Of a DNA stretch of 41,547 nt, positions 1,369-9,278 are shown in pieces. Made by a program: the position numbers and the translations under genes. The stretch is from a virus. Its lineage: Duplodnaviria; Heunggongvirae; Uroviricota; Caudoviricetes. Below the pieces are notes generated by a model. The model did no database searches. It was not told the DNA's origin and saw only the letters and a list, made by a program, of their open reading frames with translations. The stretch spans positions 1-41,547 of IMG/VR virus record IMGVR_UViG_2529292882_000020. One strand, given 5' to 3'. Positions within the stretch are counted from its first letter, which is position 1. The number at the start of each line of letters is the position of its first letter.

Positions 1369-1444
1369 GCCGATATAGCTCAGTTGGTAGAGCAGCGCAT
1401 TCGTAATGCGAAGGTCGTAGGTTCGACTCCTATTATCGGCACCA
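1369..1444 (+). tRNA. thrW: tRNA-Thr (anticodon CGU)
   Basis: 76-nt cloverleaf GCCGATATAGCTCAGTTGGTAGAGCAGCGCATTCGTAATGCGAAGGTCGTAGGTTCGACTCCTATTATCGGCACCA; anticodon CGT at positions 34-36; encoded CCA; directly downstream of proA. Confidence 0.92.
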
Positions 1445-1458
1445 TTTAAATCAATAAG

Positions 1459-2622
1459 TTACACATCATTAGTACCTTCCTTATTTTTTGACTGGGACAA
1501 ATTTGGGACCGATGGGTTCAGGATCGAGTCTATTTGCCGTGCGTGTTCGGTAAGGTGATTAGGTGCGAGGTGAGCATATCGACGAACCATTTCGATAGAC
1601 TCCCAGCCTCCCATTTCCTGTAACACTGACAACGGGACACCGGCTTGAACCAGCCAACTTGCCCAGGTGTGTCTCAAGTCATGAAATCTGAAATCATCAA
1701 TACCAGCTCGTCTCAGCGCCGCTTTCCAGGCTGTGTTTGCGTCATACCGCATCTTCCTTACTGTTGGCGCTTTCGTTCCGTCTGGTTTGGTACAGCTTTC
1801 CTTGTACACAAATACCCAACGGTGATGATTCCCGATTTGTTTTTTCAATACGCGACATGCAGTATCATTCAGCGCAACGCCAATTGCGCGGTTTGATTTA
1901 CTCTCTTCCGGGTTTATCCATGCCACCCGGCGCTGCATATCTATTTGTTGCCATTCAAGGTTGATGATGTTCGAGCGTCTTAAGCCTGTTGCCAGTGCAA
2001 ATTCAACAACAGACTTTAATGGCTCCGGACATTCATCAATCAGCCTTTGTGCTTCATGAGGCTCCAGCCAGCGGATCCGTTTATTCTTTGGTTGAGGCAC
2101 TTTAATAATTGGTGCCTTATCCAGCATTTTCCATTCACGCTCTGCGGCTCTTAGTAGGGCCTTTATAAATGAAAGATGCGTAGCCTTCGTTGCAACGGAC
2201 GCTGGTTTTGGCGTGTATTCTGGAACAGGTTTCCCTTTTTTTCTGCATGCTTCTGCCCTGAGTTTCCAGTTTTCCTCATGACGCCGGTTCGTCATTTTCT
2301 GCATTGCTGAATAAATTTTTGATTCAGTAATGTCTCTTAGTTGCATTCCTGCGAAATGTTGAAGCCAGAATCCGATCCGGCTTTTGTCATCGTCCAGTGA
2401 TTTTTTATGTGCTTTCTCTTCAAGCCACCTGACACACGCTTCCTCGAACGTTATATCAGGTATTTCACCAAGTTTGCTGACCCGCCATGCTTCAGCCTTT
2501 AGCTTGTCATGGAGTTCTGTCGCCTGCCTTTTGTCCTTTGTTCCAAGAGACTGTTTAAATCTTTTACCGTTCGGCAATGTGAAACTGGCGTACCATATTT
2601 CACCTCTGCGGAAGAGTGACAT
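1459..2622 (-). CDS. int: tyrosine site-specific integrase (P22-type, thrW-targeting)
   Basis: 387 aa; C-terminal catalytic region with HDLRHTWAS...MVRRYAH (R-H-R-Y signature); adjacent to tRNA. Confidence 0.9.
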
Positions 2623-2849
2623 TTTCTTTCCTCTGTTATGCCATCACCCGCGCTCACCTGGACAGTATGCAGCGGAGACTGAAGAGCCGCAATGCAGGCT
2701 TGTCGTGTTGTGAGGTAAGGAGATTTATTCTTAGTGGGATCTTTGCGTGTTGCCTGAAGACGCCCTGTGCGTATCCAGTTAATGGCAGTCGGTCTGGATA
2801 TCTTGAGAAAATGACAGGCCTCATCGAGTGTGAGGCTGTATGGCTCCAT
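2499..2849 (-). CDS. xis: excisionase (P22 Xis-like, HTH)
   Basis: 116 aa from internal ATG at 2849 ([31 protein letters not shown]); immediately upstream of int and overlapping it; stop/start TAATG coupling with upstream gene. Confidence 0.75.
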
Positions 2850-3154
2850 TATTTCACCTCTTGCTGTGACATTGTTGAAAAATGGATACCAGCTCGTTGC
2901 TGCCAGACGATCCAACCGAGAGTCATATCCCATGCCATGTATTCGTTATCGCCGTTTTTTGCTCTCCGACGATCTACTAAGTCACCGAAACGCTTTTCCA
3001 TGAATAATTCATAAGCTTCGCGTTCATCTGGTTCTACTTCCAGAGATAGGAGTGCGATTTCATAAGCACGGCGCTCAATATCGTCTCGCACGTCAAGGCT
3101 GCTGATACGCTCTTTAATTTCTTTAATCAGTTCTTTGTCGGTAAAAGTGGTCAT
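2849..3154 (-). CDS. hypothetical phage protein (101 aa; YfdT-like by size and position)
   Basis: ORF in operon with neighbours, overlapping stop/start; family assignment from recalled CPS-53 gene order only. Confidence 0.5.
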   Translation of the reverse strand: MTTFTDKELIKEIKERISSLDVRDDIERRAYEIALLSLEVEPDEREAYELFMEKRFGDLVDRRRAKNGDNEYMAWDMTLGWIVWQQRAGIHFSTMSQQEVK

Positions 3155-3516
3155 TATGCTCCAGCCTCCGGTGCTTTTGGCATTACTGCCCAGTGAGTGA
3201 TATTGACGTTTTCAAGGTCCCCGACCTGAAATGTCCACTGCCATTCTCCGGTTTCTTTTTGTCCCCAGGTGTACCAGAGAGAACGCCAGCCAATTAGCCA
3301 GCCTTCTCCGTTAGCATCGAATAACAAAACACTTTCATTTGCTGGTGGCAGTTCAGTTGACACTGGTATTACTTTGTTTTCCTGTGCTGCACATTTAGCT
3401 TCAAGCGCATCGAATTTACGCACCAGGTATTCAGCATCTGTTTCATTTACTTTCAGATCTCGCGGTACACATCTCCCACGAAGAAACCCTTCCATTTCGA
3501 AAACATTCATGCGCAT
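3154..3516 (-). CDS. hypothetical phage protein (120 aa; DUF551/YfdS-like)
   Basis: Trp-rich C-terminus (WLIGWRSLWYTWGQKETGEWQW); operon context. Confidence 0.5.
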   Translation of the reverse strand: MRMNVFEMEGFLRGRCVPRDLKVNETDAEYLVRKFDALEAKCAAQENKVIPVSTELPPANESVLLFDANGEGWLIGWRSLWYTWGQKETGEWQWTFQVGDLENVNITHWAVMPKAPEAGA

Positions 3517-4043
3517 TTGCGTAACTCCGATAACTCGTTAAAGCGTTCCATAAACATCCCGTAGGCATGGCCCGGTGCCAGTGGAATCACGTTGAACATC
3601 TCTGTTGCCGGGATACCTTCCAGTACAGGCCAGAAAGAGCCATCATCAAGCCCGAGATCGCGGCGTTCGGTTGCCAGCATGATGAGATCGGCATATTTCA
3701 CGGGCGTACTCATAACTGGGGGTAACCCGTATTTCTCACGGATTACGGCGTCTATTTTTTCTTCCATTTGTTTATAGTCAGGAAGAAGGCGTTTCAGTGG
3801 TGCGGGAATGTCCTGACAATACGCTTCTGTTGCATCATGCATTAACGCTTCGAAAGCAAACTCCTGCGGTACCAGCTGGCTGCAAAGCACCGCATGTTGG
3901 GCGACGCTGTAGAAGTGTGAAAGATGCCCTGCAAAGCGACAGATATTTGAGAGGGAAACTGCGATATCGTTAATCACGATGTCGTCTTTATTTATCCTGT
4001 CATAATAAAAATGCTTCCCGGAAAAAGTTTTAATAAATGACAT
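3507..4043 (-). CDS. HD-domain phosphohydrolase (YfdR-like 5'-deoxynucleotidase)
   Basis: 178 aa from ATG at 4043 with GGAG 6 nt upstream; H..HD motif (ALMHDATEAY); the longer track ORF to 4070 lacks an RBS. Confidence 0.7.
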   Translation of the reverse strand: MSFIKTFSGKHFYYDRINKDDIVINDIAVSLSNICRFAGHLSHFYSVAQHAVLCSQLVPQEFAFEALMHDATEAYCQDIPAPLKRLLPDYKQMEEKIDAVIREKYGLPPVMSTPVKYADLIMLATERRDLGLDDGSFWPVLEGIPATEMFNVIPLAPGHAYGMFMERFNELSELRKCA

Positions 4044-4136
4044 TTTGTTCTCCACGTATATGCGCTGCACCGCGCTGAATTCTGGTAAAAGGAAGCCCTC
4101 ACCATCCGGTGATTATTGAGTTAATTACGTTTCCAT

Positions 4137-4158
4137 AAATGCCCCCGCAGGGGCATTT
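4137..4158. other. perfect 9-bp stem / 4-nt loop hairpin (AAATGCCCC cgca GGGGCATTT) between early-left genes
   Basis: seen directly; no flanking T-run on either strand. Confidence 0.4.
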
Positions 4159-4170
4159 GCAGTAATGAAA

Positions 4171-4995
4171 TCAGGCGGTGAAAGTACCAATAAAGGTTTC
4201 GACTTTGCTGTCTTTGAATTTCTCAACAAGCAGATCACGAAATTCGTTAGCCATTTCTTCCTGCACTGCTTCCAGCTGAATAATGCGCAGAACCAGTACA
4301 GGGCGATCACCAGTGATAATGCTGAGTCGTAATTTAAATGGACGTTCTTTCAGGCCTTCAAACGGAACGCATTTAAATTCAAATGCCACTGGCATAATGT
4401 CTTTGGTCTTCGCTTCGACAGACTCCATCAGGGAGCGTTTGCCGCTGAAGTCATTGTCTTCAAAATCAGCAGTCTGGTTCGCTTCAATTGTGATTTTACG
4501 GACTGCCGCAGCCGCTTTTGTTGCCTGAATGGCGTCACCATTAGCATCAAAGCCCACAAGGTAGTCGGCCCAGTCTTCAATCCATTCTGCCAGTGACTTC
4601 TGGGAGTTACGCTCGCCGTTAACAGACAACAGAGCAGAGAACGGTGCTGTCTTTTTCAGTTTGAGAGTGGCGGTGTTATCTGCGTGACCTGGTTCATCAA
4701 TAGTACCCAGGTTAAGCACACTGACGGCACGCATATTATCAGCATCGATAAAGCAGCGGGTGCCTTCATCTGCAAGATCTTTAGAATAACGGGTAAAGTC
4801 ATCGATGCTGGCAGTGGAAAGCGCACCACGGAAACGGAAGCGATTTAAATTAAATTTTTCCAGATCATGAATGCGGAAATTCTCAGGCAATGCCACAGCA
4901 TCGGCACCAATCTTACTGATAATTTCATTAACACCCTGAGCAGAAATAAGGGCATGGATTTGATTAATTGCGGTTGCGTCTAAGTTCTGAGACAT
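4171..4995 (-). CDS. hypothetical phage protein (274 aa; YfdQ/DUF2303-like)
   Basis: long ORF with consistent codon use; size and position match yfdQ of CPS-53 as recalled. Confidence 0.6.
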
Positions 4996-5060
4996 AATAA
5001 GTCCTCACTATATAAAGATATTCAGTGATGAGATAAATAATCAGTTAATTAAAAACGATA

Positions 5061-5423
5061 TTAACGACCTGCTGCGCGGAGTTTTCCGTCAGGTTCACCG
5101 GCAAGAGTCAGTAACTGTCCCTGGTCTTCCTGCAGAATAGTCAGGCGACCACCGCGATTGACATACATCGGCGTTTCGGTGGTGTCTTCTTCGGAAATTT
5201 TCCCGCGGTTAGTCGGGCGAACATATGAGAGTTTGTGTTTGATTTTCACACGGTTCTCATCAAATGGTTCGATTTCCAGGTTGAGTGAGACCTTACCTTT
5301 GGTTTTCGTGTTCATCACACCGGAAGCGACTTAACTGAGAACTGCGCCGATTTTGGTTTCAAATACGCCGCCGTCCAGCTCCCCGATAAATGCCTGCACA
5401 TCAGTACTGCGTTCGCTAGCCAT
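5061..5423 (-). pseudogene. yfdP-like early gene interrupted by in-frame TAA (codon 31)
   Basis: ATG at 5423 with GAGGAG RBS; 30 codons then TAA (5331-5333); same frame continues into the 85-aa ORF 5061..5318; read-through length would be 120 aa. Confidence 0.5.
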
Positions 5424-5471
5424 TTTGCTGCTCCTCATCATATCGACCCTGCAAGGCCGATTAGTTTCTCC

Positions 5472-5560
5472 ACAAAACAGAGAAGAACACCTGCGGTGGC
5501 AGCCGCCCGGATGGATTGGGTTATGAGCCCGTCGTCCGGTGATGCTCTTCTCTGTTTTGT
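5472..5560. repeat. perfect 15-bp inverted repeat (ACAAAACAGAGAAGA / TCTTCTCTGTTTTGT) closing a 59-nt GC-rich loop
   Basis: seen directly at 5472-5486 and 5546-5560; lies in a 5424-5860 stretch with no credible ORF. Confidence 0.6.
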
Positions 5561-5861
5561 AAAAAGGACGGTACCAGCCGGAAGCAAGGGTACAAACTGG
5601 TACCGCCAGGACTACATACAGCATAAAGTTGTGGTGCCGGGTGCCTCCCGGTGCCTGGCGAAGGTTGCACACCAGACGGGTGGGTATCCACAGAAGGTCG
5701 ACTGTCAGCCTCAACCTTAACCCGCGTGCGCTGAGCCGCATTCACCACAACGCTAAGGATTCTCTTTGGTTGAAAATACTTAGCTGTTATGTGCCTGTCT
5801 TTTCACCACTTCAGGCTCGGTGGTATCTTGGTGTTTTCATATAGCCAAGAAGGAAATAGTT

Positions 5862-6053
5862 ATGACCAAAGAAGAAAAAATTCTTTATTTATTCCAACTA
5901 TCGGTTAAGACTCACACTGCATATCAGACTGCTGCCATGACATCAGATAAAAATTACAGTACGTCAGAAAACCCGATAGACGACATAAGCAAGCTTTACG
6001 ATAAGTTCGAAGCACTACTCGATAAAAAGTTTGCTGAGGCTGGGCTTGAGTGA
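5862..6053 (+). CDS. small hypothetical protein (63 aa)
   Basis: ATG at 5862 preceded by AAGGAAA; AT-rich; 3' end overlaps the convergent ORF 6015..6221. Confidence 0.3.
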   Translation: MTKEEKILYLFQLSVKTHTAYQTAAMTSDKNYSTSENPIDDISKLYDKFEALLDKKFAEAGLE

Positions 6054-6221
6054 TTGTTGAATAATCGACAAAACCCAACTTAAATTTTCGTCAGTGGGCT
6101 CGATGCCATGTGCGGTGAGCTCACTTTTCAAAACTCCAAGTAATTCAGAGCTGATTTTCAATATATCTGCTTGATTTCTAACTATTCCCACTTTTTCCTC
6201 CCTTGGTCTACGCGCGGTCAT
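6015..6221 (-). CDS. small hypothetical protein (68 aa, or 58 aa from GTG at 6191); first ORF downstream of putative pL
   Basis: N-terminus MTARRPREEK is Arg-rich; internal AGGGAGG + GTG alternative start; occupies the position N holds in lambda. Confidence 0.3.
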   Translation of the reverse strand: MTARRPREEKVGIVRNQADILKISSELLGVLKSELTAHGIEPTDENLSWVLSIIQQSLKPSLSKLFIE

Positions 6222-6399
6222 GTTTTACGCCCAAACGACTTCACAGTTATTGTTTAAAATCTGGACTTTCATTTCATACACCTGCTTTAACATGAGTGCC
6301 TGGTGGCACAACATGACTCAACGAATCATCCTAGACTTCATATGCCCCAGGCGGCTACTTCGTGGGCGTCCTGCCTGTTCGTTATCTTTGATATAAAAT

Positions 6400-6413
6400 C
6401 TAACTTAACTTAG
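6400..6413. promoter_or_regulatory. putative OL operator half-site pair (CTAACTTAACTTAG) within a leftward TTGCCA-17-TAGATT promoter
   Basis: same CTAAG-N4-CTTAG-type palindrome as the two sites between cI and cro. Confidence 0.4.
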
Positions 6414-6478
6414 TTATTATGGCAAGAGAAAACACCAAACTTTTCTTAGTTCGGTGCCTTAGTTAGAGAAGAGAGGTC

Positions 6479-7105
6479 TTAGAGTTCGTATTGAACTCCT
6501 TTGACTACACCAATGATAAGGCAATTACCATTGATAGGGATGTTGGGATACCGAGGATTTAATGGCACTAAAAACTTTTGAGGGCCATCGATGACTAATT
6601 TTTTTACTGTAGCTTCGTTTGTTCCATCAAGTCGAGCGATGACTATTTTTCCATGACGAGGTTCTGCATCTGGATCTACAATCACTGTTGCGCCTTCTGG
6701 TATTGTTGGGAGGCCATTAGGGTTAGTCATGGAGTCACCTTTAACCTCTAATGCAAATGAGTTATCACCAATCTTTAGTGATGTATCTACCCACTTGTCC
6801 ACTTCACTAAACACTTCTGCTGCCCTGCACTCAGTAAACTGCCCAGCCTGAACCCACGATATTACAGGAACTCTGCGCATGTTTGTGACGAGTTTGCCTT
6901 CAAACTCAGCACCATAAAGAATGTAATCTATTGACGTATTGAAGAACTTCGCTAATTTCGAAAGTGCCTCCCCACCAGGGGTATTGATGTCTTTCTCCCA
7001 GTACCCCACAGCAACGTCGCTTACTCCACAAAATTTACCCAATTCTTTCTGGGACGTTCCGGTAACTCTTCTCAGAGCTTTTATACGCTGACCAACCGTT
7101 TCCAT
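6479..7105 (-). CDS. cI: CI-type repressor (XRE HTH + S24 LexA-like autopeptidase domain)
   Basis: 208 aa; N-terminal HTH (TSQKELGKFCGVSDVAVGYWE), C-terminal GDSM...KK Ser-Lys dyad region; divergent from cro. Confidence 0.85.
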   Translation of the reverse strand: METVGQRIKALRRVTGTSQKELGKFCGVSDVAVGYWEKDINTPGGEALSKLAKFFNTSIDYILYGAEFEGKLVTNMRRVPVISWVQAGQFTECRAAEVFSEVDKWVDTSLKIGDNSFALEVKGDSMTNPNGLPTIPEGATVIVDPDAEPRHGKIVIARLDGTNEATVKKLVIDGPQKFLVPLNPRYPNIPINGNCLIIGVVKGVQYEL

Positions 7106-7127
7106 AGGAGCACCATTTCTTGAATTG

Positions 7128-7190
7128 CTAAGTAATCTTAGTTTTTATTGACCAAAGATAGATTTGTAATTAGCATCTAATAAAACTTAG
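7128..7190. promoter_or_regulatory. OR/pR region: operators CTAAGTAATCTTAG (7128-7141) and CTAATAAAACTTAG (7177-7190) flanking TTGACC-17-TAGCAT (7148-7176)
   Basis: two 14-bp palindromes with a sigma70-like promoter between cI start (7105) and cro start (7203). Confidence 0.5.
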
Positions 7191-7202
7191 TTTGGAGGGC
7201 GT

Positions 7203-7403
7203 ATGACAACTGACGATATCGAAAGCTACTTCGGCAGTATTGAGAAAGTTGCTGCTTTTTTCGGCATAACAACTGAAGCCGTTTATCAGTGGCGAAACCG
7301 TCCGGGCCAGTTAATTCCAAAAGGACGTGCAGCAGAAGCTGCATATAGAACTTGCGGACGGTTGCCATTTAAACCTGAGCTTTATGAAAAATCTAATGGA
7401 TAA
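7203..7403 (+). CDS. cro: Cro-like HTH repressor
   Basis: 66 aa; HTH (IEKVAAFFGITTEAVYQWRNR); GGAGG RBS; divergent from cI. Confidence 0.7.
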   Translation: MTTDDIESYFGSIEKVAAFFGITTEAVYQWRNRPGQLIPKGRAAEAAYRTCGRLPFKPELYEKSNG

Positions 7404-7992
7404 ATCGATTAACAGAAACCACAGAACGATGAGGCTAACCGTGGGTAAGCATCACTGGAAAGTAGAAAAACAGCCTGAGTGGTACGTGAAAGCTGTCAGA
7501 AAAACTATCGCAAAGTTGCCGGGTGGTTACGCTGAAGCAGCTGACTGGCTGGATGTAACAGAGAACGCATTATTTAACCGCCTTCGTGCCGATGGCGATC
7601 AGATTTTCCCGCTGGGATGGGCAATGATTTTGCAACGTGCTGGTGGAACTCACTTCATTGCTGACGCTGTGGCGCAGTCTGCAAATGGCGTCTTTGTGTC
7701 TCTTCCTGACGTCGAGGATGTGGACAACGCCGATATTAACCAGCGCCTGCTGGAAGTCATTGAACAGATCGGCAGTTATTCAAAACAGATTCGTTCAGCA
7801 ATTGAAGACGGTGTAGTGGAACCGCATGAGAAGACAGCAATTAACGACGAGCTGTACCTCTCAATTTCGAAGCTGCAGGAGCATGCAGCACTGGTCTACA
7901 AAATTTTTTGCATTTCGGAAAGTAATGACGCCCGCGAGTGTGCAGCTCCGGGCGCCGTGGCGTGTCGTGACTGTGGAGAAACTAACGCATGA
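7384..7992 (+). CDS. putative early regulatory protein (CII-like position)
   Basis: ATG at 7384 overlapping cro stop; about 202 aa; family uncertain. Confidence 0.4.
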
Positions 7993-8327
7993 ACAGTTTA
8001 ACAACACACTACCGTCGCTCGCAACTGATTGCGCTTCCTGTACCGGGTGGAAAAGCGAAGGTGGAGTATTGCTATGCAGTAAATGTACCAGGTGACAGGG
8101 AAATTGTAACCCACAGCTTTGCAGAGTGGGCTGTGGGTGATTTCAACCGGCAGAAGGAGACAGTCCTTTGCGACAAGTTAACAGCTGGTTCAAAGATCAC
8201 TACGGAGTGCCCGTCAGAGTCATTCGTTGGGAGCCGGAAACACAACGGGTTATCTACCTCCGCGAAGGCTATGAGCATGAGTGTTTCAGCCCGCTCGAAC
8301 AGTTTCGTCGTAAATTCAGGGAAATAG
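7989..8327 (+). CDS. hypothetical early protein; 3' part possibly frameshifted or overlapped by another ORF
   Basis: first ~57 codons look protein-like, rest is Ser-rich low complexity; alternative frame 8168..8347 has AAGGAGA + TTG and cleaner protein-like sequence. Confidence 0.35.
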
Positions 8328-8336
8328 AGGTCGGTC

Positions 8337-9278
8337 ATGAGCACTAAATTAACCGGCTATGTATGGGATGGTTGCGCTGCATCAGGCATGAAATTATCCA
8401 GCGTGGCAATTATGGCCCGCCTGGCTGATTTCAGTAATGACGAAGGTGTGTGCTGGCCATCAATTGAAACCATTGCCCGCCAGATTGGCGCGGGGATGAG
8501 TACCGTCAGAACGGCTATCGCACGGCTGGAAGCAGAAGGCTGGTTAACGCGTAAGGCGCGTCGCCAGGGTAACCGCAATGCGTCGAATGTTTATCAGCTT
8601 AACGTTGCGAAGCTTCAGGCAGCGGCATTTTCTCAACTGTCAGATTCTGACCCGTCAAAATCTGACGCATCAAAATCTGACCCGTCAAAATTTGATGCGT
8701 CGAAATCTGGCAAAAAAGCGGGTTTTCACCCGTCAGAATCTGGCGGGGATCCGTCAGTAAAATCAAAACATGATCCGTCAGATAAAAAAACTTCTCGTCC
8801 GGACGCTTCGCAACCGGACACGCAGACGGATGAACAGGATTTTTTAACTCGCCATCCTGATGCGGTTGTATTCAGCCCTAAAAAGCGCCAGTGGGGGACG
8901 CAGGATGATTTGACCTGCGCACAGTGGCTCTGGAAAAAAATCATCGCCCTGTACGAGCAGGCTGCCGAATGTGACGGCGAGGTGGTTCGTCCCAAAGAAC
9001 CGAACTGGACAGCCTGGGCAAACGAAATTCGCCTGATGTGTGTGCAGGATGGTCGTACTCACAAACAAATCTGCGAGATGTACAGCCGCGTCAGCCGCGA
9101 TCCGTTCTGGTGCCGTAACGTGCTCAGCCCGTCGAAGCTGCGGGAAAAATGGGATGAGCTTTCCCTGCGCTTATCGCCGTCCGTCAGCACGTACACCGAA
9201 AAACGCGAAGACCCGTACTTCAAATCCAGTTACGACAACGTGGACTACAGCCAGATCCCGGCAGGATTCAGGGGGTGA
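8337..9278 (+). CDS. phage replication initiation protein (lambda O-like, N-terminal winged helix)
   Basis: 313 aa; iteron array embedded in the coding sequence as in lambda O. Confidence 0.6.
   Translation: MSTKLTGYVWDGCAASGMKLSSVAIMARLADFSNDEGVCWPSIETIARQIGAGMSTVRTAIARLEAEGWLTRKARRQGNRNASNVYQLNVAKLQAAAFSQLSDSDPSKSDASKSDPSKFDASKSGKKAGFHPSESGGDPSVKSKHDPSDKKTSRPDASQPDTQTDEQDFLTRHPDAVVFSPKKRQWGTQDDLTCAQWLWKKIIALYEQAAECDGEVVRPKEPNWTAWANEIRLMCVQDGRTHKQICEMYSRVSRDPFWCRNVLSPSKLREKWDELSLRLSPSVSTYTEKREDPYFKSSYDNVDYSQIPAGFRG
8641..8800. repeat. replication origin iterons (CCGTCA[A/G]AATCTG-type direct repeats, at least 5 copies) followed by an A-rich tract
   Basis: copies at about 8651, 8681, 8729, 8752, 8777; protein shows the matching SDSDPSKSDASKSDPSKFDASKS repeats. 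Confidence 0.55.

Follow-up and report, generated by a model that had tools for sequence, protein, structure and literature searches.

The closest intact counterparts of the gene described here are the yfdP copies of Escherichia coli K-12 (CPS-53/KpLE1; WP_000135673) and of the phages SfIV and SfV, in which yfdP lies upstream of yfdQ-yfdR and encodes the full protein, and the gene is carried by about 45% of complete E. coli genomes. K-12 transcribes the yfdPQ unit, and SrsR binds there to the spacer between yfdO and yfdP (PMC9181523); the replication-inhibition phenotype of yfdQRST does not depend on yfdP (PMC4776307). A literature search returned no functional study of YfdP itself. Closer still are broken copies in three complete E. 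coli genomes, those of MS 69-1 (USA; chromosome and a 64-kb "plasmid unnamed3"), TUM1226 (Japan) and isolate 68 (Spain), which account for the four records, and three of the 2462 complete E. coli genomes having the locus, that match a 61-mer spanning an in-frame TAA exactly; the remaining matching E. coli records are one or two bases off (95-99% identity band). RefSeq already records these genes (V9Z38_RS19730, RS157_RS21860 and LQ200_RS21795, respectively) under the PGAP label "internal stop" (yfdP / YfdP family phage-associated protein).

The stretch of DNA analyzed (the window, 41,547 nt) carries the same gene as K-12, SfIV and SfV at 98-99.7% DNA identity and differs from them at codon 31, which is GAA in the intact copies; the K-12 upstream region, with its yfdO junction and SrsR boxes, also differs from that of the window. 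The 363 nt of the MS 69-1 gene are identical to the window, TAA included, the TUM1226 and isolate 68 copies show no in-gene differences, and all three have the same neighbors and the same tRNA-Thr/proA site, whereas their immunity module (break at 6384-7416) and flanking proA allele are different. Reading from the tRNA, the gene order is int, a xis-like gene, yfdT, yfdS, yfdR, yfdQ and yfdP in a leftward operon, followed by a CI-like repressor gene; the integration site is thrW/proA and the gene order is that of SfIV/SfV-type phages. The element is an SfIV/SfV-like prophage inserted at tRNA-Thr beside proA, and yfdP comes first among the recognizable genes of its leftward early operon (yfdP-yfdQ-yfdR-yfdS-yfdT-xis-int). 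The features to which we refer below are as follows.

1-1444: host flank, with the 3' part of proA, within which the window starts
1369..1444: tRNA-Thr (CGU), attachment site and sole tRNA in the window
4171..4995, minus strand: yfdQ (DUF2303; PF10065, E=2e-92), intact, next downstream of yfdP in the same leftward operon, with its own Shine-Dalgarno sequence (-6.4 kcal/mol)
5061..5423, minus strand: yfdP pseudogene, 363 nt (120 codons plus stop), broken at codon 31, identical to V9Z38_RS19730, matching PHROG 204
5436..5431, minus strand: Shine-Dalgarno sequence GAGGAG of the native yfdP start, with a 7-nt spacer to the ATG
5423..5421, minus strand: native yfdP start codon ATG, read from the sequence
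5333..5331, minus strand: premature TAA at codon 31 (GAA or GAG, Glu, in intact alleles)
5331..5423, minus strand: residual N-terminal ORF of 30 codons (MASERSTDVQAFIGELDGGVFETKIGAVLS, then stop), covering the disordered N-terminus and two thirds of the predicted helix
5318..5316 and 5315..5313, minus strand: candidate restart codons GTG and ATG, in frame, +12 nt and +15 nt past the TAA
5061..5318, minus strand: residual C-terminal ORF, the candidate restart product (85 aa if begun at GTG 5318, 84 aa if begun at ATG 5315)
5063..5061, minus strand: normal yfdP stop codon TAA, closing the 120-codon frame
6479..7105, minus strand: CI-like repressor, 208 aa, HTH/S24, immunity region
7203..7403, plus strand: Cro-like protein, P22_Cro-type, immunity region

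An earlier note made from the sequence had described a yfdP-like gene on the early left side, with a GAGGAG ribosome binding site and a start at 5423, that reads 30 codons into a TAA at 5331-5333 and continues in frame past GTG and ATG restart codons at 5318 and 5315. The coordinates were checked directly in the sequence, the restart candidates are present, and ORFs and synteny bear out the placement. The frame is indeed open beyond the TAA, although 89 sense codons, rather than the 85 given, separate it from the normal stop, 85 being the length of the GTG-started ORF; the intact length of 120 aa given there is that of K-12 YfdP. A run of 89 stop-free codons has a probability of ~0.018 at the base composition of the window, and the long frame is moreover not a chance one because its read-through translation is YfdP. 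Pairing of the native start with the anti-Shine-Dalgarno sequence amounts to -8.6 kcal/mol, a value that places it among the best 1.8% of positions over the 6 kb around it, and the 30-aa N-terminal ORF is reported as a gene by gene callers in GCA_000261385.1.

The read-through translation equals the phage SfIV YfdP coding sequence except at codon 31, and K-12 YfdP has only two further residue differences. The PHROG 204 profile matches it over residues 1-119 (E=1.2e-49), and a precomputed Pfam match (PF27127, YfdP) exists for the 84/85-aa product and for all homologues; in our own Pfam-A and NCBIfam scans the repaired protein had no match, leaving PHROG 204 (unknown function) as its sole assignment. 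The synteny of the family is likewise present: in the early-left operon of the prophage, yfdP immediately precedes yfdQ (DUF2303) and yfdR. The uninterrupted ORF of ~116-123 codons that marks family members is broken in the window copy by the TAA. Codon 31 is GAA in E. coli K-12, in O111:H8 strain SF4-1 and in Shigella phage SfIV, the last of which differs from the window by one base over the 363-nt gene and likewise over a 511-nt query. As an unbiased sample of the state of yfdP, we used 80 IMG/VR loci anchored on the neighboring yfdQ; codon 31 is GAA in 74 and GAG in six (after correction of three frame-shifted read-outs), and yfdP is intact in 79, the remaining copy having a 1-nt deletion at codon 19. 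Because intact homologues carry GAA at this position, the lesion is a single base change at 5333 (G>T for the coding strand, C>A for the plus strand) that turns Glu31 into a stop (E31*).

A database search returned 284 relatives of YfdP, of which 30 homologues with 59-75% identity, belonging to other Enterobacterales, from Kluyvera, Klebsiella, Serratia, Leclercia, Salmonella, Kosakonia, Mangrovibacter and others, were aligned. All 30 are 116-123 aa long, align from residue 1 and are unsplit, so that the proposal that homologues might be naturally divided at this point found no support. The N-terminal 30 residues are conserved, with T7, F12, L16, D17, G19, F21, K24 and L29 invariant; a sense codon (E, D, N, A or T) occupies position 31 in every case, and the restart residue Met37 is Leu in most of the homologues. 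With the TAA at codon 31 and every aligned homologue uninterrupted, the window holds a pseudogene member of the family and not a functional one. An internal ATG as the true start, placing the TAA in a 5' leader, was ruled out given the conservation of the N-terminal 30 residues in distant homologues and the location of the only strong Shine-Dalgarno sequence at the native start. An AlphaFold2 model, obtained by folding a 98%-identical database protein (P0001) with the homologue alignment, has a mean pLDDT of 78, with values of 80-94 over residues 11-90. In it, one long helix (residues 9-39) precedes three long antiparallel strands (44-88), and the tail is disordered. Codon 31 falls within the only helix of the model, and the 84/85-aa product would consist of the sheet minus the helix.

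Taken together, these data make it very probable that a recent and rare G>T mutation (E31*) has turned yfdP into a pseudogene, a lineage-specific loss of a dispensable accessory gene. The transversion changed GAA (Glu31) to TAA in a small gene of unknown function; translation from the strong native start would end after 30 residues, and the full 120-aa YfdP would not be made. Loss of YfdP function is to be expected from the model, since the protein is predicted to combine a beta sheet with a single helix and the stop interrupts the latter. Transcriptional polarity may lower expression of the downstream genes yfdQ to yfdT, as ~270-335 nt of mRNA would be left untranslated; where Rho-dependent polarity on yfdQ was considered, the C/G ratio peaks at only about 1.7, in one stretch. 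The 84-codon C-terminal remainder is without secondary lesions, which fits a recent origin and equally fits continued constraint on a restart product. That the nonsense mutation is recent, one of the options raised in the earlier note, is upheld by the ancestral GAA, by the single base separating the window from SfIV, and by the absence of further decay across the left arm in most carriers.

In addition to the three complete genomes, look-ups of the exact products identified the TAA in CP088860, GCA_027986265, GCA_000261385 and the Logan runs SRR30416046 and ERR10767012. Within the covered part of 2061..6383, the left arms of MS 69-1, isolate 68, CP088860, GCA_027986265 and GCA_000261385 match the window at every base; the last of these is 100% identical over 2061..8423 and is therefore probably the source of the window or nearly clonal with it. 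TUM1226 differs at six sites, locus L029 at one, and locus L028 is divergent. Since most of the compared carriers are identical to the window across the left arm, no further decay has accumulated. The immunity region (6384..7416) varies among the carriers, with repressors of 208, 217 and 224 aa adjoining TAA alleles. Sharp mosaic edges delimit this region in the window, the flanks being 97-100% identical to the MS 69-1/TUM1226 prophage and the ~1-kb immunity module unrelated; that prophage encodes a 224-aa LexA-family repressor and a YdaS-type protein, in contrast to the 208-aa HTH/S24 repressor and P22_Cro-type Cro of the window. The proA of the window has 23 differences from that of the MS 69-1 lineage in the first 750 nt, and between 748 and 6383 there is one mismatch, at 1759, indicating either the same prophage arm in a different host background or a recombined host flank. 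The several immunity modules and differing proA alleles imply that the module carrying the TAA has passed from one prophage mosaic and host background to another and, consequently, that loss of yfdP is tolerated. Because the lesion module adjoins at least three immunity modules, in hosts with different proA alleles, yfdP would appear to be dispensable for maintenance of the prophage and probably also for its spread. The rest of the prophage is annotated as intact in the RefSeq carriers.

One carrier complicates the picture of a single recent event. In L028, a contig of the Logan run SRR30416046 corresponding to 3037-5827 of the window, the haplotype that bears the TAA is only 96.9% identical to the window; over 2.8 kb it has 86 differences, of which the nearest to the TAA lie 38 nt and 124 nt away. 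The stop may have recurred independently there, short-patch recombination may have introduced it, or the contig may be a chimera of two prophage copies; the case slightly weakens the view that all copies of the TAA descend from one recent mutation.

The correct label for the locus is a yfdP pseudogene (internal stop, E31*), rather than two small genes or a recoding site. It provides natural evidence for the dispensability of yfdP in an otherwise intact-looking SfIV-like prophage and a ready-made null allele for work on a very widespread and uncharacterized gene; beyond correct annotation, its importance is very small. It represents ordinary gene decay.

An alternative is a split gene with reinitiation, as raised in the earlier note; in its functional form, ribosomes would terminate at the TAA and restart at GTG 5318 or ATG 5315 to give an 84/85-aa C-terminal fragment with part of its function left. 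Restarts after nonsense codons that are independent of a Shine-Dalgarno sequence are well established in E. coli (lacI, T4 rIIB), including within ~15 nt of the stop. The window resembles these cases, which follow the scanning model of reinitiation, in having an in-frame GTG or ATG no more than 15 nt past a premature stop in a well-translated ORF; it differs from them in that the arrangement has no Shine-Dalgarno sequence and is not conserved. In favor of a restart are start codons 12 and 15 nt past the stop and in frame, a C-terminal ORF free of further lesions, and calls of precisely this 84-aa product in 204 blocks of a public assembly index, behind which stand many different N-terminal lesions that all spare the C-terminal ORF; the last look-up, however, selects intact C-termini by design, and C-terminal truncations and fusions of YfdP exist too. 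Anti-Shine-Dalgarno energies at the two restart codons (-2.3 and -3.0 kcal/mol) are about the local median, corresponding to no Shine-Dalgarno sequence, and neither a conserved arrangement or restart codon nor a Shine-Dalgarno or coupling signal was found, Met37 being mostly Leu and none of the homologues being split. The fragment would furthermore lose the sole helix (9-39), which belongs to the high-confidence part of the model. A split gene with reinitiation as an evolved arrangement is not supported, given its absence from the 30 divergent homologues, the lack of conservation of the restart Met and the missing Shine-Dalgarno sequence, and we consider a partly functional split gene unlikely. 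A weak restart at GTG 5318 or ATG 5315, independent of a Shine-Dalgarno sequence, is nevertheless possible and may yield a trickle of the 84/85-aa product, which would be scarce, if made, because the restart codons have no Shine-Dalgarno support. Such a restart is conceivable as a side effect of the nonsense mutation, not as a designed split gene.

It could also be that inactivation of yfdP is advantageous, for instance where the protein burdens lysogens or sets off a host defense, and that knock-outs therefore recur. Other assemblies have about nine separate, independent lesions within the first 36 codons: GAG15TAG, AAA24TAA, TCC34TAA, three 1-nt indels (+A, +T and -T), a 65-nt deletion with CGCAGT repeats at its ends, and 5' replacements of two kinds. 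The single disrupted yfdP of the 80 unbiased loci has its 1-nt deletion at codon 19, and the TAA itself occurs on a second haplotype. On the other hand, the list of lesions stems from the 84-aa look-up, which returns N-terminal disruptions only, about 99% of copies are intact, and sporadic prophage decay is to be expected in a pool of hundreds of thousands of E. coli assemblies. Selection for loss of function is decidedly unlikely on this evidence, and because the look-up returns only intact C-termini and ~99% of the copies are intact, the other lesions are read as sporadic prophage decay. Quite improbable is the more far-reaching proposal that yfdP knock-outs are recurrently selected because the helix or the whole protein is a liability in some hosts, with the stop at codon 31 spreading by advantage and the 84-aa product possibly having a second function; if selected loss were true, the liability might be, for example, an abortive-infection defense trigger or a toxic early protein.

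The recurrent 65-nt deletion is present in the prophages L009, L010 and L014, where it corresponds to 5341-5405 of the window, has its ends in the 6-nt direct repeat CGCAGT and looks like a slipped-strand deletion. The same three prophages also lack yfdQ.

A sequencing or assembly error in the source record, a further option put forward in the earlier note, is effectively excluded. The window does differ from SfIV by a single base, and one of the carrier records, MS 69-1 "plasmid unnamed3", is visibly error-rich; against this, the same base is found in at least eight independently produced assemblies of separate projects, from various laboratories and countries and including three finished chromosomes, and a substitution is not the typical homopolymer or indel error. 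The prediction that resequencing might restore a sense codon is not borne out, as the independent assemblies all keep the TAA. Scanning IMG/VR for exact occurrences of the TAA-bearing sequence returned 0 contigs. A look-up of the exact 30-aa N-terminal peptide returned 236 blocks and is unusable as an allele count, seven of the ten displayed being contig-end truncations.

TAA followed by G terminates translation efficiently in E. coli, and this is the context of the stop at codon 31. Programmed read-through or suppression giving full-length YfdP, for which the in-frame continuation speaks and nothing more, is exceedingly improbable, as the stop is missing from essentially all homologues (being found in 3/2462 genomes, 0/45 phage records, 0/80 IMG/VR loci and 0/30 divergent homologues) and the window contains neither a suppressor tRNA (tRNA-Thr CGU being its only tRNA) nor a stimulatory RNA, Rfam finding only the tRNA-Thr.

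Just upstream of yfdP, the region 5438-5748 (minus strand, 311 nt) is annotated by PGAP in the three RefSeq carriers as "hypothetical protein, frameshifted". In SfIV, the annotated gp34 is a 226-aa ORF that fuses the equivalent of 5438-5748 in frame to yfdP, and its counterpart in the window is a 136-aa ORF (5331..5741) that ends at the TAA. The DNA of the region is 97-99% conserved, and of the five loci compared over the full length, four have no indels; given this conservation, the "frameshift" looks like the normal state, and the protein calls appear to be artefacts of annotating a conserved leader that may be non-coding. Further upstream, a 29-aa minus-strand ORF at 6225-6314 (MLCHQALMLKQVYEMKVQILNNNCEVVWA) has its match in the N-terminus of a gene of 91-105 aa in the prophages L009, L031 and L033; this gene appears to have been truncated or replaced in the prophage of the window. 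Finally, the 64-kb MS 69-1 "plasmid unnamed3" (NZ_CP146678.1) copies the chromosomal prophage of that strain, the TAA included, has many frameshifts and enters fragments of chromosomal genes, and is probably no true plasmid but an assembly artefact, or else made up of reads from excised phage DNA that were poorly polished.
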